Positions 134-8,539 of a DNA stretch of 9,541 nucleotides are shown one piece after another. The notes beneath the pieces were generated by a model, which saw only the letters and a program-made list of their open reading frames with translations, had not been told where the DNA came from and did not search any database. How positions within the stretch are numbered: the stretch's first letter is position 1; the number at the start of each line of letters is the position of its first letter. The DNA is from a virus (taxonomy: Duplodnaviria > Heunggongvirae > Uroviricota > Caudoviricetes), in IMG/VR virus record IMGVR_UViG_2706794687_000013; one strand, written 5' to 3'. A program made the position numbers and the translations under genes.

Positions 134-242
134 GTTTTTATCGCAGGCGTATACCACGGTGGGCAAATCTATGAAACCGATTTTTTATCCAGTGCACCGT
201 AAAACCCCCATCCTTCAGGGCGTGGCGGATATCAAACTTTGG

Positions 243-1325
243 TCATTTTCTCTGGCTGATCTTTACCGGATAACCATCCCGAAGATCAATTAAGTGCTCC
301 GGTTCAGAAGCAAACCATGCATAAGATCCCCACGCCAATTCTGGTATTGCCTTTTTAAAAGGCAGAGCACTTCTGTCCATAAATGCCGTAAGGAATGCAA
401 GATTTTTCTCGCTGAACCCAGCGTCAATAGCCAAATGAGTGAGAGTAACTTTTCGTTCCCTGTTTATAGGCCCATCTGTCGCAACTACTTCAGTGAAAAC
501 TACAAGCATGTCCGAACCCGTTCGGTCCTCTCCCAAATCAATCAAAATAATATCTGGAAGTGCTTTTGAGGCATCAATATTCAGCCCCAATGCTTTTGCC
601 AATACATCATCCTGAGCAACAACTTTATTCCCGGATTCAGACAACCAGAGCACAGTTGGATTCTTAAGAAAATTAGGAGCAAAAACTTCGATGACGGCCT
701 TAGCTATTGTACTTGACGGGCCCGGAGCTAAAGTTCTCTTCTCTCCATTTGGGAAAGTGACGACTACGGCATCAGCAGCAATCACTGCCCCTGATTTCAA
801 TAAACGCAACCTAGCAAGAGCGGCTTTGTTCAAATGATTTTCTTGCCAGGAACTTATTGCACTCAGCAGCGAATCTCCTTCAAGCCCGGCATCAAAGAGT
901 GCTGCAAAAGAGCGATTCAAACTGTAACGAGGACGAGAGGATGTGGTGGGTATACCTTTACGCTCAACAATTGCATTGCAAGGTATTAGGCCATTTTTTA
1001 TAGTTTCATCACGTATTGGCTCACGCGTATTTTCCGCATACCATGCATCAGCAGGCCTTATCTTTTGTTTAGAGAAAGTCATCTTTACCCAGCTTTCTCT
1101 GGACGCATCATCAGTAAGAGCAGCCTGCGAATCTCCCATACTTACAACCTGGCTGGGCCTTATCCATCGCCCCAGCCCCTCAACCGCACCAGCATAAAAC
1201 ATGACAAAAATTGTTTTTGCAGCTATTTCCCGAATTAAATATCCACGATTCTCAGTCCCTTCAGGGAAAATTAATTGTAATCTTTCCCGGATAACATTCA
1301 ATGGGGGAACAACAGGCAGATTCAT
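243..1325 (-). CDS. putative Type II restriction endonuclease, partner of the adjacent methyltransferase (possibly BsuBI/PstI-like; family recalled from memory, unverified)
   Basis: 360-aa ORF. Its ATG (1325-1323) overlaps the MTase stop (ATGA at 1325-1322), implying translational coupling. GGAG lies 10 nt upstream. GC is low (about 40%), like the MTase. No MTase or specificity-subunit motifs; no nuclease motif could be confirmed by eye. Confidence 0.55.
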   Translation of the reverse strand: MNLPVVPPLNVIRERLQLIFPEGTENRGYLIREIAAKTIFVMFYAGAVEGLGRWIRPSQVVSMGDSQAALTDDASRESWVKMTFSKQKIRPADAWYAENTREPIRDETIKNGLIPCNAIVERKGIPTTSSRPRYSLNRSFAALFDAGLEGDSLLSAISSWQENHLNKAALARLRLLKSGAVIAADAVVVTFPNGEKRTLAPGPSSTIAKAVIEVFAPNFLKNPTVLWLSESGNKVVAQDDVLAKALGLNIDASKALPDIILIDLGEDRTGSDMLVVFTEVVATDGPINRERKVTLTHLAIDAGFSEKNLAFLTAFMDRSALPFKKAIPELAWGSYAWFASEPEHLIDLRDGYPVKISQRK

Positions 1326-3094
1326 GCAATCATCACTCCATAGAAACCAGCGATAGTTCTCTCAATAATCCGTCTGTGGACGCCAGCATCAATTAACGAT
1401 TGAATCTCCATCACCTGCTCCAGAGAAGGCAACGGGATTGAATTCAATTCATAGGCCGAAACAGCAACACTTCCGCTTATACACCTGAACGCCCGATCGA
1501 CAACATGCGAATTAAGTAGCATATCAATAACATCAGGGCGAACCGCAGAGAACAATCCGTTTGAATATACAATATTAATATGGTTTTCAACTACTACGCC
1601 ACCAGTTTCATCTATAAATCCCTGAGGTAAAATTGCCGCTAAAATCCTTCTGTCCTGTTCCTTCGATGTTGTCCGCTGAACAAGCACACATTCAGATTTT
1701 GTCACAAGGAAACCCTGTTGTGGGGTTATATCGATATAGGGAACATGATTTTTTCTGTCTGCACTAAAACGAAAACCAGCTGAAGTTATTGATTCCGCCC
1801 AGACTAATGGGTAGCTATTTTTTCCTTTCGTCGTACGCAACTGCGACTTAAATCGATTCCAGACTAACTGACCTGTAGAGACTGAGTATCCCAGATCAGC
1901 TAAACGCGTAGACATCTGTTTTAATACATTAAGAAAACAGGCATCATCTTTAACGCGTGGCAAAAGCCACGTTGCTCCACCTTTTTCTATATCAACATTA
2001 CCTATTTTCTCAATTTTTGCTTTGTTCAACCCCTTAGGGACAAGTGAGGATACCTGGGCCCGAACTTTATGTTCTCCCGCCTTGAATGCTGTCAACATTG
2101 TTTCCTGGAGAACATCGTCAAAGACCCCATCCCTGTCAGTGACGAAATCAAGGGCATACGGAGTAGTTTTTTCGGTCAAAAGNNNNNNNNNNNNNNNNNN
2201 NNNNNNNNNNNNNNNNNNNNNNNNNNNNNNNNNNNNNNNNNNNNNNNNNNNNNNNNNNNNNNNNNNNNNNNNNNNNNNNNNNNNNNNNNNNNNNNNNNNN
2301 NNNNNNNNNNNNNNNNNNNNNNNNNNNNNNNNNNNNNNNNNNNNNNNNNNNNNNNNNNNNNNNNNNNNNNNNNNNNNNNNNNNNNNNNNNNNNNNNNNNN
2401 NNNNNNNNNNNNNNNNNNNNNNNNNNNNNNNNNNNNNNNNNNNNNNNNNNNNNNNNNNNNNNAATGGATCGATCTCTATCCCCTTTAAACGACGACTGAT
2501 TCTCCTCAACATCCATTCAGGGGAAGACCCCTTGTCTTTTTTTAACATTCGAATGGCTACTGGTGCCAAAAATGCACCGCCACCACACGCAGGATCAATA
2601 ACCGATGCATGAGAAAAATCAACACCAGACTTTTCAGCCAGGTCCAAGAGACGCGCTACCAAAGGTGGGGGGGTATAGTAAGCCCCCAATTCCGAACGGT
2701 AAGCGGATGGCAGCATTACCGTATAAATTGACCCAATCAGATATCCAGCGTCCTCCGCCGGAAATTGAGCAATAAGCTCACCTGTTCGTTCAGCGAGCTC
2801 GCGTGCATCACATGGAATGTCTTCTATGTAAACAGTGTGCGGTACTGCCCTCATTTTAATGCTGCTTTTTTGCTTTTTTGCAAGGGTATCCCAATATGCA
2901 GCTACGATGCTGAAGCAGTATGAGCGGGCATGCATCAACCTTGACTGCCCGGTTTTGTAATTGCCCGCATAACCTTTGGCCATGGCTTTACAAGTTTGAT
3001 ATCTTTCCAGATTAGAAAACTCATTATCTGTAAAAAAATCAAAATGTTGCACATTCATAATGTAAAATCCTAATGTATCAAACATGCGGGCCAT
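1322..3094 (-). CDS. N6-adenine DNA methyltransferase (N6_Mtase/HsdM-like catalytic domain with a TaqI-like C-terminal target-recognition region); Type II R-M methylase
   Basis: 590-aa ORF. 'GAYYTPPPLVARLLDL' and 'DPACGGGAFL' match the AdoMet-binding motifs (X and I) of gamma-class amino-MTases. The C-terminal part ('LADLGYSVSTGQLVWNRFKSQLR...') resembles TaqI-like recognition domains. Motif IV (NPPY/F) presumably lies in the masked stretch 2183-2462; frame continuity across the mask is assumed from length. Alternative start ATG 3058 (AGGA 9 nt upstream). Confidence 0.8.
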   Translation of the reverse strand: MARMFDTLGFYIMNVQHFDFFTDNEFSNLERYQTCKAMAKGYAGNYKTGQSRLMHARSYCFSIVAAYWDTLAKKQKSSIKMRAVPHTVYIEDIPCDARELAERTGELIAQFPAEDAGYLIGSIYTVMLPSAYRSELGAYYTPPPLVARLLDLAEKSGVDFSHASVIDPACGGGAFLAPVAIRMLKKDKGSSPEWMLRRISRRLKGIEIDPXXXXXXXXXXXXXXXXXXXXXXXXXXXXXXXXXXXXXXXXXXXXXXXXXXXXXXXXXXXXXXXXXXXXXXXXXXXXXXXXXXXXXXXXXXXXXXLLTEKTTPYALDFVTDRDGVFDDVLQETMLTAFKAGEHKVRAQVSSLVPKGLNKAKIEKIGNVDIEKGGATWLLPRVKDDACFLNVLKQMSTRLADLGYSVSTGQLVWNRFKSQLRTTKGKNSYPLVWAESITSAGFRFSADRKNHVPYIDITPQQGFLVTKSECVLVQRTTSKEQDRRILAAILPQGFIDETGGVVVENHINIVYSNGLFSAVRPDVIDMLLNSHVVDRAFRCISGSVAVSAYELNSIPLPSLEQVMEIQSLIDAGVHRRIIERTIAGFYGVMIA

Positions 3095-3160
3095 AACATC
3101 TCATGGTGGCGCATAGCAAACTGGCCCGAAGAATATCACGCACCAAGTCGATCTCATAAC

Positions 3161-3176
3161 CCGTTATGACAATAAA
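3161..3176 (+). repeat. right copy of the 16/17-bp direct repeat (CCGTTATGACAATAAA) flanking the R-M cassette
   Basis: Read directly; same orientation as the copy at 117-133. Lies in the 214-bp gap between the MTase start and the upstream gene. Confidence 0.6.
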
Positions 3177-3308
3177 TCTTTGTAGCTGAACTCACTTGGT
3201 GATTTGTCAATCATTCCTGGCCTCCAGTTCGTCCTGAATCTCTTTATCGAGTTCACCGTATTTGTTAGTCCTCATCACTCACGACTTGACTTCCAGAAAT
3301 AACCTTGA

Positions 3309-3665
3309 TTATTCGGGGCTATATTTTGTCACCCTGCGTATCCGCGCTTTCGCATTACGCTCAATCTGGATTAGCTTTTCTATATTTTTTCGCCTTTCCC
3401 GCTCCTCCTGGCGCAAGAGCCTTACATCATCTGCCAGTCTGGTTTCTCTTTTCGCCACAGAGAGCATCCAGTCAAATGGCTCCACAACTGCACCGCAAAT
3501 TTTACAGCGGACCTGACGCTCTTTTTCGTCAACCCGGACAGAAGCGTGATGGCAATATGGTCTTTCCGATGGCTCATAAAGAAAATTAACCTGATTACGA
3601 GGGTTATCCTCTTTTACCGGAAATAAAACAATATTGCTTAACTCATCTTCTGGTTTTATTTCCAT
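3309..3665 (-). CDS. hypothetical protein with a Cys-cluster (zinc-ribbon-like) N-terminal half and a basic coiled-coil-like C-terminal half
   Basis: 118 aa from ATG 3665-3663, preceded by a strong RBS (GGAGAGGAGC immediately upstream). Pattern 'YCHHASVRVDEKERQVRCKICGAV' (C-x16-C-x2-C). C-terminus is rich in R/E/K ('RLLRQEERERRKNIEKLIQIERNAKARIRR'). The track's longer form (to 3722) lacks an RBS. Confidence 0.55.
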   Translation of the reverse strand: MEIKPEDELSNIVLFPVKEDNPRNQVNFLYEPSERPYCHHASVRVDEKERQVRCKICGAVVEPFDWMLSVAKRETRLADDVRLLRQEERERRKNIEKLIQIERNAKARIRRVTKYSPE

Positions 3666-3722
3666 GCTCCTCTCCTTTGATGCGAATGCCAGCGGTAATT
3701 GAAGCCTGATAGCTAATTTCAC

Positions 3723-4145
3723 TCACAGTACCGCCTCCTGAAAATCACCCTGATAGAAAGCCGGTACACGCTGCATAACTTCACTCTTCCGGCACTCGCG
3801 ACAGATTATGTTCTGATGTCTGTCGTAGCGGCGTATTTCTCCGTCCGGTAATGACCAGATAAGGTCCGGATCAACCACAGATGGTTTCTTCAGCTTTGCC
3901 CTCGAGAGTTTTTTGCGGGCGTTTTGCCAGTCCTTACGAGCCTGTTCAGACGGGAATAACCCGTAGCCAGAGTTGTATACATCCCCACTGGCAACCAGCT
4001 CTCTGGCGAGAACGCTTATTAAATATCTTGTCGCCCCGGTTTTAGCTTCCAGTTGTCGTAACGTCTCGCGCCCACTCTGGCGTACGAGTTCAACAACCTG
4101 CCCCTTAATTTTTTCCCGCTCTTCCTGTGTAAATACTTTTGCCAT
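3723..4145 (-). CDS. hypothetical prophage protein (possible winged-helix N-terminal region, CxxC near C-terminus)
   Basis: 140 aa from ATG 4145-4143 (the track's 4160 start is TTG). Tightly packed in the leftward operon, 15 bp after the upstream gene's stop, with a G-rich stretch before the ATG. 'VVELVRQSGRETLRQLEAKTGATRYLISVLARELVASGDV' looks HTH/wHTH-like. No family recognised. Confidence 0.5.
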   Translation of the reverse strand: MAKVFTQEEREKIKGQVVELVRQSGRETLRQLEAKTGATRYLISVLARELVASGDVYNSGYGLFPSEQARKDWQNARKKLSRAKLKKPSVVDPDLIWSLPDGEIRRYDRHQNIICRECRKSEVMQRVPAFYQGDFQEAVL

Positions 4146-4160
4146 AAGCGCCCCCGGCAA

Positions 4161-4886
4161 TCACTTTTCCGACACAATACGACCGGAGGAATCGACAATC
4201 TGTCGAACAATATCCCGGTGCTTGTTCAGCTCCCGCAACGCGGCGCAGACACGCTCCCACTTCTGGACATGACTTTTCGCCCGACGCAGTTCGCGGTTTG
4301 CCATATGCAGCGATGGTAAAACCAGGTCATCCGCTTGCGTTTCGGTGAACGATGGCAACGACTGCACAATGTCCGCCACAGTTTCTGTTTTAATTTCTTC
4401 CTGTGTTGCAGCTTCCTGTACCGGTAACGCAACACCTGCTGGCTGAGGAAAGACTTTACCATCCGTTTCCGCTATGGATGCGGCTTTCGGCTCTGCCGGT
4501 AAATCAGCGCCCGGTATGCAGTACCGAAATTTACCGCCCTGATTCACGCGAATCAGACGCCCTTTGCTGATTGCCATGGCCAGCGATGAATTCGCCCGGC
4601 GGGAGGTAATCCCGAACATCAGTGCCAGCTCATCCGCCGTTTGTGGGCCATGTTGTTCAATCGCCTCAGTCAGCATTTGCGCTGTCACTTTCGGTACCGG
4701 TGACACTGGTTCACTTTCACCAGCCTGAATCAGCCACCACATCGAACCCTTGTTATCCGCTTCACCACGGCGCTTCAGTTTCCACAGTTCGTTGACCGCA
4801 TCTTCACGGCTGATTCCAAGGCGGGACGCCACCACATGTGAAGAGGCTCTTTTCAGTGCTTTCAGTGCGTCAAATACAGTTTCCAT
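4161..4886 (-). CDS. hypothetical prophage protein with two putative winged-helix-like repeats (possibly a DUF-type phage protein; unverified)
   Basis: 241 aa from ATG 4886-4884, with GGAGG 8 nt upstream; the track's 4904 start is TTG. Two similar segments ('[40 protein letters not shown]' and '[43 protein letters not shown]'). Starts 21 bp after the DnaC-like stop. Confidence 0.55.
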
Positions 4887-4907
4887 TAAAACATCCTCCA
4901 ACAAAAA

Positions 4908-5420
4908 TTACTTCACAACTCCCGGAAAGCTGACATTTGAACGCCAGCTATCCCAGTTAAACGTCACCCACCGACAACCGTTCATGGTCATGCGGTCCAT
5001 AATCCTCTCACCAAGAAGCGTGCTCATTGCGGCATGATTCAGGTTTGTTAACATCCCGACACTGCACAGTGATGCTGTCCGGCGATCAATTATCTGGTGC
5101 AATACCACCTGCTCGTTTTTCGTCTCCCGCTGAATGCCTATTTCATCCAGGACCAGCAAATCAACCCCGCAAAGCTCCTGTAAAAATTTTTCACCGGATT
5201 TGCCGTTGTCGTAGCTGTCATGCAACACGCTCATGACATCAGACTCGGTGACGATAATCACGCTGCGCCCCTTCGCCATCAGCCGGTTACCCATCGCCGC
5301 TGCAAGGTGATTTTTCCCGGTGCCGGTTTTACCGCTGAACACAAAATTCGTGCACCCGGTCATCAGTTCGTCAGCTATGGATTTGGCCTGGCTCAGCGCG
5401 TATTTTTGCCCGTCGTTCTG
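4908..5420 (-). CDS. DnaC-like AAA+ helicase loader (lambda P-equivalent / YdaV-like replication protein); 5' end lies in masked region
   Basis: Visible 170 aa carry Walker A 'SGKTGTGKNHLAAAMG' and Walker B 'LLVLDEIG', typical of DnaC/IstB-like loaders. The true start (estimated about 75 codons further 5') is hidden in the N-run 5421-5683. The track's N-terminal 'MFSERRRFLGRTG...' (TTG at 5747) is probably not real. Confidence 0.8.
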   Translation of the reverse strand, partial: QNDGQKYALSQAKSIADELMTGCTNFVFSGKTGTGKNHLAAAMGNRLMAKGRSVIIVTESDVMSVLHDSYDNGKSGEKFLQELCGVDLLVLDEIGIQRETKNEQVVLHQIIDRRTASLCSVGMLTNLNHAAMSTLLGERIMDRMTMNGCRWVTFNWDSWRSNVSFPGVVK

Positions 5421-5685
5421 NNNNNNNNNNNNNNNNNNNNNNNNNNNNNNNNNNNNNNNNNNNNNNNNNNNNNNNNNNNNNNNNNNNNNNNNNNNNNNNN
5501 NNNNNNNNNNNNNNNNNNNNNNNNNNNNNNNNNNNNNNNNNNNNNNNNNNNNNNNNNNNNNNNNNNNNNNNNNNNNNNNNNNNNNNNNNNNNNNNNNNNN
5601 NNNNNNNNNNNNNNNNNNNNNNNNNNNNNNNNNNNNNNNNNNNNNNNNNNNNNNNNNNNNNNNNNNNNNNNNNNNNNNNNNNNGG

Positions 5686-6666
5686 GAGCAACCAGGGGTT
5701 TTCAAAATTCCGGTCCGGCCCAAAAAACGTCGTCGCTCGCTGAACAAATTCCGTTCCCGCTTTCCCGGTCGCCGCCAGGTATCTCGCGTAACGCCTCACA
5801 CCATCCAGCATGGTCTCTGGTGGCACCCCCTCGCGCAATCTGGCCTTCCAGGCACTGAATGCGGATTTCTTCGGGTTTGCCCCGGCACGCAACGGGTATT
5901 CCCGCCAGACCTGTTCGAACACATCCGGATAATCCACTCGTCCCACAGGCTGCCCGGTGTTTTCCGGGGCTACCCGATCGGCTTCCCGCTGAATGGCGGA
6001 ATCGGCTTCAGGCTGCTGCAGTTGGAGTGATTGCTCCGGCCTTGCGGTCATCACCTGCTGCACAGCGCCCGAATCGGCTTTCAGCGCATACGCTGAATCG
6101 GCTTCCGGTGTCGAGCCTGCTGGCTGACCAGGATTGACGGTCTGAACATCCCCTGCCTGGTTCGTGGCGTTTTTTACGCCATGGACCATAGTGTTTTGAT
6201 CTTCTTTATCTGTATCTTTATCTGTATCTGTCGTGACTCGTCGTGACATGTGCGTGACATTTCGTGACGCGCCGTGACAATCGCCATTTTGTTCCCGCTT
6301 TCTTTCCCTCTCTCGCTGCGCCCTCTTGCGCTCTGCAGGAGATTTTGCGGTTTGCGAAATATTGCCGTTGTCCTCTTTAAGCACCTGGCGTTTTTCCCAT
6401 CCAGTGATTAAATCACCATCAAGTACCCGCCCCTGCATCGTCTGCAAAATTGAATCAATTACCTCTTCTGTCACGTCGAGCGCACTTGCCAAATCTTCTG
6501 TCGTGACATCAATGTGACCTCGCGTGACATTTCGTGACGCGCTCACCAGGAGGTGGATATACACTGCCATCACTGTTGCAATTGGCTGCCCTGACACCCT
6601 GGCAATTGTTCGCCACTTAGGGTCATTTGGCATGTCATGCCATAATCTGAGCCAGGCGTTAGCCAT
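5686..6666 (-). CDS. phage replication initiator (lambda O-like / YdaU-like replisome organizer); 3' end lies in masked region
   Basis: ATG 6666-6664 with AAGAGG upstream (track start 6672 is GTG). C-terminal half has the 'FEQVWREYPLRAGANPKKSAFSAWKARL...' motif recalled from phage replication-initiation proteins. The gene contains the iteron arrays and an acidic/basic linker. The stop is inside the N-run; the track's tail 5371-5420 ('ERRAKIRAEPGQIHS') is an artefact of reading through the mask. Confidence 0.65.
6231..6278. repeat. iteron-like array: five CGTGAC copies at 10-11-bp spacing, adjacent to an AT-rich tract and a 12-bp tandem repeat (putative ori core)
   Basis: CGTGAC at 6232, 6242, 6253, 6263 and 6273. 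Immediately preceded by 6191-6230 (about 30% GC), which contains TTTATCTGTATC x2 (6205-6228). Lies inside the O-like gene. Confidence 0.55.
6470..6542. repeat. second iteron-like array (CGTGAC x3 plus TGTGAC and one inverted GTCACG) including a 21-bp perfect copy of part of array 1
   Basis: GTCACG 6470-6475; CGTGAC at 6502, 6523, 6533; TGTGAC at 6513. GCGTGACATTTCGTGACGCGC is identical at 6522-6542 and 6252-6272. Confidence 0.55.
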
Positions 6667-6737
6667 ACTCACCTCTTCTGATACCGAATCTTTTTACTCA
6701 CGAGTTGCCGGGAGCGATTCGATATGGCTATTGTCAG

Positions 6738-7163
6738 TCAATGTACTGCCACAGCATTTCCTGCCGGGCCACCACGGTTCATCTGATTGAAACCGGCGAT
6801 TGCCACTGCGACAAAATCATCAGCGTCTCTCACCAGTCGTTCATGCGTCTCCACCAGTTCCCGAAAATAAGCTGAACTGTGGCTGCGCATTCGAGCCACC
6901 AGCGGAGGTGGCATTGCCCTTTCGATCGCAGGTAACAACGCCTGAATTTTTTCAACAGCGTCAGGGGTGTCTTTATCCAGCCAACGGAAAATCTTTTGGG
7001 TGTTGAGATAAAGCGTGTTGTGCTTGCTGTCGTTATGCAGAACCGGAAACGTCATTCCCAGTTCGAAATAAACCCTGGTTATTTCAGCTGCCGGAACTTT
7101 TTCACCGTCCGGATGCGCCCAGGCTTTCATCGCCATGCGGATGTGTTCATGCTTGATTTTCAT
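6738..7163 (-). CDS. ydaT: YdaT-like prophage regulatory protein (possible CII-like role in the switch)
   Basis: 141-aa ORF beginning 'MKIKHEH...'. Its ATG (7163-7161) overlaps the upstream gene's stop (ATGA). Size and position (second gene after the Cro-like gene, before the O-like and DnaC-like genes) match Rac ydaT as recalled; sequence identity not verifiable here. Confidence 0.6.
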   Translation of the reverse strand: MKIKHEHIRMAMKAWAHPDGEKVPAAEITRVYFELGMTFPVLHNDSKHNTLYLNTQKIFRWLDKDTPDAVEKIQALLPAIERAMPPPLVARMRSHSSAYFRELVETHERLVRDADDFVAVAIAGFNQMNRGGPAGNAVAVH

Positions 7164-7423
7164 GAATCAACCCCCGCCGATGGTTGTGTGTTAGCCTGAA
7201 ACTCAGCAGGCAAGCCGTCAGTTGGGTTGGGGTAGGTTTTACTGTCAATCTCATGTGGGGTCACCACCCATCCCGTTGCTTCACACCAACGTAATATTTT
7301 TTCTCCTGTAAGTTTTGCACGCCCCGTTATAACGTGGCTGACCATCCCTTGGGATGCGCCAACAATCTCAGCAAATGAACTCTGGGTTATATGAAAATGA
7401 TGCAAATATTCTCCAAGATTCAT
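7160..7423 (-). CDS. ydaS: YdaS-like Cro-type HTH DNA-binding protein (first gene of the leftward early operon)
   Basis: 87 aa from ATG 7423-7421 (the track's 7450 start is TTG and would run into the operator region). HTH-like 'ITQSSFAEIVGASQGMVSHVITGRAKLTGEKILRW'. Divergent from the repressor gene. Confidence 0.6.
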   Translation of the reverse strand: MNLGEYLHHFHITQSSFAEIVGASQGMVSHVITGRAKLTGEKILRWCEATGWVVTPHEIDSKTYPNPTDGLPAEFQANTQPSAGVDS

Positions 7424-7534
7424 AATCCGCCCTATGTGATGTGTTACCAATGCATAATTAATAGCACTGTTATTTTTAAAAGTAAATAGTGATACTATTT
7501 CAAAGTGATTAGCAATCTTATTAGAATTGGATGT
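7424..7534. promoter_or_regulatory. divergent promoter/operator region with two 15-bp palindromic operator-like sites (O1 7460-7474 AATAGCACTGTTATT; O2 7485-7499 AATAGTGATACTATT)
   Basis: 111-bp AT-rich gap between divergent starts. O2 is a perfect 6-3-6 palindrome. Candidate rightward promoter TTCAAA(7499-7504)-17-TAGAAT(7522-7527), ending 7 nt before the repressor ATG. Candidate leftward promoter overlapping O1/O2 on the minus strand. Confidence 0.5.
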
Positions 7535-8035
7535 ATGAAAAGAAAATCATTGTCAGACACCGACCTCAACGCCGCCAGAAGACTGAAAGAAATCTGGATG
7601 GCAAAGAAATCTCAGTTGGGATTGACTCAGGAACGTGCGGCGGAAATTATGGGGTTTTCAACACAAGGGGCGGTAAGTCACTACCTAAATGGTCAAACCC
7701 CACTAAACCTTGAGGCTGTTCTAAAGTTTGCTGGCTTACTGAAAGTTCCCCCTGAGTCAATCAGGCCAGACATGGTAGATTTGCTGCAAATTGCAAGGAT
7801 GTATTGTCGAGAACCACAGCAAGATAACATAGTCGCATTACCAGCAGACACAGAACAAACAGAGGATGAACTACCGTTTGCCGTAGAGCCGATGGAACGA
7901 GATTTAATCCATACGTTCAGAGCTTTTCCGAAAGAAGATCAAGAACACATGCTTCAGGAGATGAAAGATAAAAAAGAATCAATGGATCGTACGGTTGCGC
8001 GGTGGTTAGCTGCACAAAAAGGCCGTCGCGCCTAA
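7535..8035 (+). CDS. paaR: XRE-family HTH transcriptional repressor (PaaR/RacR-like prophage repressor)
   Basis: 166 aa from ATG 7535 (the track's 7505 start is GTG). Canonical HTH_XRE 'LGLTQERAAEIMGFSTQGAVSHYLNGQTPLNLEAVLKFAGLLKV'. Divergent from the Cro-like gene; followed 19 bp later by the antitoxin-toxin pair. Symbol inferred from operon architecture, not sequence identity. Confidence 0.75.
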   Translation: MKRKSLSDTDLNAARRLKEIWMAKKSQLGLTQERAAEIMGFSTQGAVSHYLNGQTPLNLEAVLKFAGLLKVPPESIRPDMVDLLQIARMYCREPQQDNIVALPADTEQTEDELPFAVEPMERDLIHTFRAFPKEDQEHMLQEMKDKKESMDRTVARWLAAQKGRRA

Positions 8036-8054: not shown

Positions 8055-8249
8055 ATGAGTACAGTCCTTTCCCCAATGGTTTCAGAATTTGAGACAGTTG
8101 AGCAAGAAAATAGTTACAACGAATGGCTGCGGGCCAAAGTAGCAGCAAGCCTCGCGGATCCCCGCCCGGCGATTCCGCATGATGAGGTAATGGCGGAAAT
8201 GGAACAAATTATTGCCCAAATTGCTGCTGCAACTCACAGAGGTGAATAA
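8055..8249 (+). CDS. paaA: small antitoxin of a ParE-type toxin-antitoxin module (PaaA-like)
   Basis: 64 aa; AGGAG 9 nt upstream of ATG 8055. Stop TAA 8247-8249 overlaps the toxin ATG (TAATG). Acidic, low-complexity C-terminus. Size and position match the recalled PaaA2 antitoxin; symbol assigned by context. Confidence 0.65.
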   Translation: MSTVLSPMVSEFETVEQENSYNEWLRAKVAASLADPRPAIPHDEVMAEMEQIIAQIAAATHRGE

Positions 8250-8539
8250 TGTTACCCGTTTTATGGCTACCATCTGCTCGTGATGATTTGCGCCAGATCG
8301 TAGCCTACATAGCTAAAGAAAATCCCGCGGCAGCACGCAGAATGAAAATTCGAATTGAAACATCCGTTTTGCCGCTCACAGAGCATCCTTACCTGTATCC
8401 TCCAAGCGAGCGAGTTCTTGGTCTTCGTGAAATTGTAACTCATCCTAACTACATCATCCTTTACCGAGTAACAGCATCAAGCATAGAAGTAGTAAATATT
8501 GTGCATTCTCGAAGACAGTATCCAGGCAAAAACAGTTAA
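8249..8539 (+). CDS. parE: ParE/RelE-superfamily toxin (ParE-like)
   Basis: 96 aa. 'LPVLWLPSARDDLRQIVAYIAKENPAAARR...GLREIVTHPNYIILYRVTASSIEVVNIVHSRRQYP' fits the ParE/RelE pattern. Translationally coupled to the upstream antitoxin; GAGG upstream. Confidence 0.8.
   Translation: MLPVLWLPSARDDLRQIVAYIAKENPAAARRMKIRIETSVLPLTEHPYLYPPSERVLGLREIVTHPNYIILYRVTASSIEVVNIVHSRRQYPGKNS

Follow-up and report, generated by a model that had tools for sequence, protein, structure and literature searches.

A three-gene block beside a restriction-modification cassette in a Shigella sonnei prophage as probable Rac-type lambdoid backbone

The IMG/VR virus record IMGVR_UViG_2706794687_000013 (Caudoviricetes) contributes a 9,541-nucleotide stretch of DNA, here called the window, in which three small genes lie between a phage replication module and a BsuBI/PstI-type restriction-modification (R-M) cassette. 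These genes very probably are backbone accessory genes of a Rac-type lambdoid Shigella sonnei prophage, standing where lambda carries ren and the nin region and having no functional tie to the R-M cassette beside them. Their families are already catalogued as DUF1627, DUF977/Ren-like and phrog_1621, and the block is not a novel R-M accessory. The R-M cassette is a single, recently acquired replacement of ~3.1 kb that spreads with its flanks.

An initial annotation had described the block as the least explained coding part of the window and had named no family for its genes. Profile matches to PF07789, to PF06163 and phrog_142, and to phrog_1621, with expectation (E) values from 1e-30 to 1e-121, supply those names, and the main value of the analysis is the clarification that the block is common prophage backbone. 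The annotation's overall interpretation stands in part. Early phage accessory functions, one of its suggestions, agree with a place in the early-right operon backbone, at the ren/nin position that follows the replication genes. A second suggestion, anti-defence factors, draws on analogy with Ren and YdaW. The third, regulators of the adjacent R-M genes, is not supported: the block mostly occurs without R-M, the R-M family also occurs without the block, and a mosaic breakpoint lies between them. The genes show clear homology to ordinary lambdoid nin-region or replication-accessory proteins and are conserved independently of R-M, the outcome that the annotation itself had named as refuting its reading.

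Gene order and position in the prophage backbone

The block and the cassette are laid out as follows.

4161..4886, minus strand: gene 1, 241 amino acids (aa), ATG at 4886 and stop at 4161, with GGAGG 8 nt upstream of the start
3723..4145, minus strand: gene 2, 140 aa, ATG at 4145 and stop at 3723, starting 15 nt past gene 1
3309..3665, minus strand: gene 3, 118 aa, ATG at 3665 and stop at 3309, starting 57 nt past gene 2
243..3094, minus strand: BsuBI/PstI-type R-M cassette, with the methyltransferase (MTase) at 3094-1322 and the restriction endonuclease (REase) at 1325-243

The coordinates, lengths (241, 140 and 118 aa), gaps of 15 and 57 nt and good ribosome-binding sites first reported for the block are exact. 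Equally correct was its placement directly upstream of the R-M genes in the same transcript direction, all of these genes being on the minus strand. Shine-Dalgarno sequences are good at all three starts, and AAAGGAGAGGAGC lies immediately 5' of the gene 3 start. Pfam and PHROG profile alignments of genes 1-3 begin at the ATGs at 4886, 4145 and 3665, not at the longer open reading frame (ORF) starts with TTG or GTG. The genes are real because each has hundreds to thousands of homologs, and database sequences share 99-100% identity with their products.

Among 5426 complete E. coli genomes, 4278 have matches to parts of the block and 233 to the entire block. Rac-like prophages and phage Rac share an order of ydaS-ydaT-ydaU-ydaV (or a P-like loader), an optional DUF1627 gene, DUF977 and gene 3, and DUF977 directly follows the loader in many prophages. 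Past gene 3 the Rac-like order continues with DUF7167, small ORFs, Ea22-like genes, hok, DUF968, RusA and Q. The position of the block matches that of ren and the nin region of lambda.

A neighbourhood table built from 80 IMG/VR loci seeded on gene 3, the closest (at least 96% identity) of 512, comprises 68 distinct neighbourhoods and gives the following counts.

DUF977 upstream of gene 3: 66/74 loci, 45 of them with a constant 61-bp gap
DUF1627 upstream of gene 3: 33/66 loci
Loader type: DnaC-like in 27, P-like in 10 and neither detected in 29 (of 66 loci)
DUF7167 directly downstream of gene 3: 59/78 loci
R-M downstream of gene 3: 3/59 loci

In Erwinia, Pantoea, Photorhabdus and Kluyvera, DUF977 is absent from the neighbourhood of the gene 3 homolog. 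The homolog is translationally coupled (ATGA) to NinG, RusA, YbcO-like or HNH genes and lies directly 5' of a Q-type antiterminator gene (L093:6001-6387, L095, L097, L098, L094, L092). Many of the homologs in these four genera carry an extra conserved C-terminal tail (...KEPLPLWQNE...).

One functional proposal compatible with the backbone classification is that the proteins are replication accessories, binding a YdaU/YdaV-like initiator or loader, host DnaB or the origin to modulate the initiation or directionality of replication. The block lies immediately past the loader gene in the same operon, and among phage loci with enough upstream sequence gene 1 occurs only where a DnaC-like or P-like loader is detected. 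Lambda Ren, the relative of gene 2, has been described as probably taking part in DNA replication and clusters with O in two-hybrid tests (bioRxiv 10.1101/2021.04.19.439022). On the other side, genes 2 and 3 accompany at least three types of replication module, three being found among the gene-3-seeded loci, and in other genera gene 3 lies far from replication genes, adjoining Q. The varied modules and the Q-side position of gene 3 therefore argue against a module-specific partner, and a replication role of this kind is unlikely.

The reading of the block as lambdoid backbone has its own proposed mode of expression. The three non-structural genes, placed between the replication genes and Q, would be expressed by read-through of the Cro/YdaS-YdaT-YdaU-YdaV transcript. 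Their products may act early after induction as small DNA- or protein-binding modulators that tune replication and host takeover. The early region of the window is on the minus strand, in the order Cro/YdaS-like gene, YdaT/CII-like gene, YdaU-like gene, loader, genes 1-3, spacer and R-M genes. The members upstream of the block, and the repressor that faces them, are listed here.

4908..5747, minus strand: DnaC/YdaV-like helicase loader (PF01695, E 2.2e-17; phrog_50, E 9.6e-62), which closes the replication module 21 nt 5' of gene 1
5371-6672, minus strand: YdaU-like replication initiator
6738-7163, minus strand: YdaT/CII-like gene (Pfam YdaT_toxin, E 5e-9; PHROG "CII-like transcriptional activator", E 3e-40)
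7160-7450, minus strand: Cro/YdaS-like helix-turn-helix (HTH) gene
7505-8035, plus strand: cI-like repressor, divergent from the Cro/YdaS-like gene

A promoter scan returned no promoter-like site in 2900-5000, including the spacer 5' of the MTase gene, where no sigma-70-like promoter was detected, and a terminator scan returned no terminator-like site on the coding strand of the same interval. DUF1627 has been reported as a frequent neighbour of PasA/PasC; an Rfam scan of the whole window detected no RNA family and no Pas-type small RNA.

Several side observations concern the surrounding genes. The gene at 6738-7163 matches both of its families and so displays the conflicting annotation of YdaT as toxin or regulator. 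Beyond the cI-like repressor, at 8055-8539 on the plus strand, lies a second antitoxin/RelE-ParE toxin pair that is seemingly intact; its members, of 64 and 96 aa, overlap by ATGA. Two runs masked with N, at 2183-2462 and 5421-5683, fall ~59-60 nt short of the real sequence seen in L010 and L004, which are identical loci, and ORF lengths across the masks are therefore underestimates. The MTase, which spans one mask, measures 590 aa here and 610 aa as annotated in a 99.9%-identical genome.

The R-M cassette and its junction with gene 3

The cassette matches PF06616 and PF17728 as well as the PADLOC profiles MTase_II (E 2.2e-230) and REase_II (E 2.8e-128), and a spacer of 214 bp separates gene 3 from the MTase gene. 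It would be separately acquired cargo that replaced the usual DUF7167/small-ORF segment just past gene 3. In BLASTN comparisons, homology with R-M-free prophages extends 4 bases beyond the gene 3 stop codon, is then lost, and returns within a RelE/ParE toxin gene, which marks the right flank of the replacement. The replacement spans approximately 189-3304 of the window (~3.1 kb), and the same slot in the R-M-free, empty-site prophages holds DUF7167 and two small ORFs. Its two edges have the following features.

3305..3320, minus strand: left junction of the R-M replacement, with divergence in the last four codons of gene 3 (KYSPE* versus KSRTE*)
1-90, reverse complement: terminal end of the insertion sequence IS1 (GGTGATGCTGCCAACTTACTGATTTAGTG...), which truncates the RelE/ParE toxin gene and leaves a remnant at 91-~202

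The junction was defined by nucleotide alignment of four R-M-bearing and four R-M-free loci, and it is identical in all four R-M-bearing sequences compared, which are independent of one another. Clean empty-site comparisons are provided by L001 and L005. L014 was considered as a clean R-M-free twin and rejected, as it has an IS3-family element after gene 3. The breakpoint falls inside the 3' end of gene 3, and therefore the three genes are older than the insertion. A single gene 3 allele, 99-100% identical, is present at every R-M-bearing locus found, because the cassette spreads with its flanks; this shared allele is most simply a matter of physical linkage to the breakpoint. The cassette cleanly illustrates how cargo can replace a nin-region segment at a mosaic junction located at a gene end.

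The distribution of the cassette bears directly on the proposal that the three genes are C-protein-like controllers, co-acquired with the R-M genes to time methylase and endonuclease expression. Adjacency, common orientation, DNA-binding folds and the single gene 3 allele common to all R-M-bearing loci would suit such controllers. The distribution data contradict the proposal, which is extremely improbable: the cassette is present in 2 of 5426 E. coli genomes as against 4278 with parts of the block, and it follows gene 3 in only three of the 59 gene-3-seeded loci tabulated above. FDAARGOS_943, the one R-M-bearing E. coli genome examined, has the cassette in a prophage without DUF1627 and hence without gene 1. 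Among 25 phage loci seeded on the REase, five near-identical copies have genes 2 and 3 nearby and the other 20 lack all three genes within 6 kb, and REase homologs occur on 182 plasmids of unrelated genera. The age of the genes relative to the insertion points the same way. Finally, the folds are winged helices and a zinc ribbon, whereas C proteins have an Xre-type HTH, and there is no match to HTH_3.

Related loci display further rearrangements. The RelE/ParE toxin gene is intact in related prophages, where it is paired with a ParD antitoxin. Two related IMG/VR contigs, L014:6280-11040 and L009, have undergone insertion sequence-mediated rearrangements. In L014, the IS3-family element lies directly after gene 3 and is followed by a second, partial copy of replication genes, DUF977 and gene 3, where a gene 3 fragment adjoins an IS1 end.

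Families, folds and possible roles of the three proteins

By profile comparison, gene 1 is a DUF1627 (PF07789)/YdaW-family protein. It covers the full PF07789 profile (1-155) with E 3.9e-93 and 309.8 bits, against a gathering cutoff of 28.1, and matches phrog_630 with E 1.8e-121. Its identity is 99% to a DUF1627 protein of Shigella sonnei and 57% to YdaW of the K-12 Rac prophage over residues 1-139 (E 2e-56). The two winged-helix-like repeats originally read from the sequence are backed by an AlphaFold2 model of modest confidence and by structural matches. The model has two three-helix units, H4-39 and H69-107, the second with a clear beta-hairpin wing (E112-123), followed by a disordered acidic linker at ~130-184 and a long C-terminal helix at 185-240. 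Foldseek aligns the model with winged helix-turn-helix (wHTH) proteins of the MarR/ArsR type at a root-mean-square deviation of 1.1-1.8 Å over ~55-60 residues. Gene 1 combines tandem winged helices with a C-terminal helix that probably mediates oligomerisation. The idea that its second winged helix is a duplicated Ren-like domain was dropped, the hhalign E value of 0.17 not being significant.

Gene 2, again judged from its sequence, is a DUF977 protein labelled LygF in phage records; it is homologous to lambda Ren over its full length and occupies the position of Ren. It matches PF06163 (DUF977) over the entire profile (1-134 of 134) with E 2.6e-30 and 105.7 bits, the gathering cutoff being 22.1, and phrog_142, named "Ren-like exclusion protein", with E 2.3e-46. 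Lambda Ren matches phrog_142 end to end (E 1.6e-41). A direct hhalign comparison of the DUF977 profile with lambda Ren has a probability of 94.8% and E 5e-8, pairing residues 16-132 of gene 2 with 6-93 of Ren; pairwise BLAST detects the C-terminal motif alone. Gene 2 consists of an N-terminal winged helix, a basic insert of ~45 residues and the conserved C-terminal motif NIICRECRKSEVMQRV, and DUF977 had earlier been classed as a winged helix (PMC2686095). The HTH-like N terminus and the CxxC noted at the outset are both present. A zinc site at the CxxC was considered and rejected, as these are the only two Cys residues in the protein and the first is absent from Ren. Because Ren lacks that first Cys, the CxxC is taken as part of the conserved C-terminal segment with no evident metal site. 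A literature search on LygF, DUF1627/DUF977 and "Ren-like" returned no functional study, the only appearance of LygF being as a gene name in two genome announcements for Salmonella. The profile-level confirmation of the DUF977-lambda Ren link provides a testable hypothesis of escape from Rex or other abortive infection for a very widespread E. coli/Shigella prophage gene.

Gene 3 is a phrog_1621 protein (E 1.8e-54), a nin-region family in which a CHCC zinc ribbon is followed by a long basic helix. Both the Cys cluster and the basic coiled-coil tail of its first description hold: C38, H40, C54 and C57 are invariant in close relatives, and a single long helix occupies residues 63-115. The AlphaFold2 model, with a predicted local distance difference test score (pLDDT) of 75, adds two strands, E43-46 and E51-54. 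Helix residues 84-110 are highly conserved, and the segment LRxEE..RR.NIEKLIQIERNAKARIRR is almost invariant in relatives. A profile search collects 1666 cluster representatives at E<=1e-3. Distant homologs keep only the C-x-H…C-x-x-C motif and an L…N-x-K-x-R helix motif, with C38, C54 and C57 invariant and H40 at least 90% conserved. The relatives extend across Enterobacterales and are all annotated "hypothetical protein". Pfam assigns no domain to distant members, and the family has no Pfam model; Foldseek searches of PDB and BFVD with the gene 3 model yielded no match of significance and no more than a generic likeness to zinc ribbons. Large, very conserved and lacking a Pfam model, the family is a reasonable candidate for curation and simple biochemistry.

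All faces of the basic helix are strongly conserved, which suggests a conserved nucleic-acid or protein target. Most likely, though at low confidence, the helix pairs into a coiled-coil dimer whose C-terminal basic part would grip nucleic acid or a conserved protein of the host or phage. The basic region follows the coiled coil, and the helix ends in an L..E.N.K.R motif, an arrangement resembling a "reverse" basic leucine zipper (bZIP). A bolder extension, in which the family would be an unrecognised class of dimeric, "reverse bZIP"-like early proteins binding nucleic acid or host factors, and would form with gene 2, given the fixed 61-bp spacing, a two-protein counter-defence unit against abortive infection in Escherichia/Shigella prophages, is distinctly improbable.

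Some database proteins (P0006, P0010, P0043, P0361) fuse an Ead/Ea22-like domain (PF13935) to gene 3 sequence; such fusions may be real, or may be frameshift or annotation artefacts. In some prophages, DUF977 and gene 3 are separated by an Ea22-like gene, with gaps of 735-969 bp.

For the three proteins, an NCBIfam scan gave nothing useful and PDB sequence searches gave no match. Genes 2 and 3 have no match among PADLOC defence profiles, where gene 1 has one marginal match (E 0.0099) with no single stretch passing.

Counter-defence is a second functional proposal that is compatible with the backbone classification. At least one of the three proteins might, by analogy, neutralise an abortive-infection system of the host or a resident prophage, Rex-like for the Ren homolog or a retron or toxin-antitoxin toxin for the YdaW homolog. 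Lambda needs Ren to escape Rex exclusion. Toothman and Herskowitz reportedly found in 1980 that lambda ren mutants become sensitive to Rex exclusion. Gene 2, as a full-length Ren homolog and the putative Rac-type counterpart of Ren, with its winged helix and Ren C-terminal motif, may likewise protect the phage from exclusion of the abortive-infection type. Ren is also described as interacting with Rex proteins, and two-hybrid contacts have been reported between Rex proteins and Ren/O (bioRxiv 10.1101/2021.04.19.439022). The sole functional lead for gene 1 is the appearance of K-12 ydaW among prophage genes that blocked the retron-Sen2 toxin RcaT in an overexpression screen (bioRxiv 10.1101/2020.06.22.160242). 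However, for DUF977, full-length DUF1627 and gene 3 such a function is drawn from analogy, no rexAB-like genes are seen in the window, and the YdaW lead comes from overexpression of a shorter, C-terminally divergent protein. Counter-defence is a tentative and doubtful assignment.

Classification of the block as R-M-independent lambdoid backbone has several points weighing against it. Its mechanistic part is drawn from folds and synteny. The neighbourhood loci are the closest of a larger set, so their fractions describe Escherichia/Shigella prophages only. The single gene 3 allele of the R-M-bearing loci is compatible with a functional link. The gene 1 model comes from a shallow alignment, with a mean pLDDT of 62 and a predicted template modelling score (pTM) of 0.29. 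The passages describing the retron screen do not state which blockers were individually validated, and K-12 YdaW is 57% identical to gene 1 over the first ~140 residues only and then diverges.

Relation to known systems

Gene 1 resembles K-12 Rac ydaW in position, directly downstream of ydaV, a placement also seen in phage Rac and other prophages. K-12 YdaW has 186 aa and aligns to approximately residue 139 of gene 1, diverging beyond, whereas gene 1 is the full-length 241-aa form with an acidic linker and a long C-terminal helix. ScpB, like the gene 1 model, has tandem wHTH domains, and ScpB-type proteins give the longest Foldseek alignments. However, there is no sequence-level relationship to ScpB, MarR or ArsR, the Foldseek E values are only 5e-4 to 2e-2, and the low pTM makes the domain orientation unreliable. 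Moreover, ScpB works with ScpA/SMC, and no such partner is present in this window.

Gene 2 and lambda Ren have in common an N-terminal winged helix, the C-terminal motif N-I/V-x-x-E-C-R/Q-x-S-x-x-M-Q/K-R-V-L-A-F/V-Y and an operon position downstream of the helicase-loader gene. They differ in length, 140 aa against 96 aa, since Ren lacks the ~45-residue basic insert between the conserved parts, and in the extra Cys that makes the CxxC of gene 2. In addition, gene 1 lies between the loader gene and gene 2 here, whereas lambda ren directly follows P.

For gene 3, the TFIIB zinc ribbon (PF08271) is the best yet sub-threshold resemblance to the N-terminal knuckle pair in both sequence and fold, with 21.1 bits against a gathering cutoff of 29 and a best Foldseek match of E 0.44. 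The ligands are C-H-C-C in gene 3 but C4 in the TFIIB ribbon, and a coiled-coil-like helix follows instead of cyclin folds. Gene 3 is homologous to no named nin protein (NinG/Rap, RusA, YbcO or other small nin ORFs), yet in several genera its homologs are embedded among the small proteins of the nin region (NinG/Rap, RusA and YbcO), joined to them by ATGA overlaps and placed just before Q.

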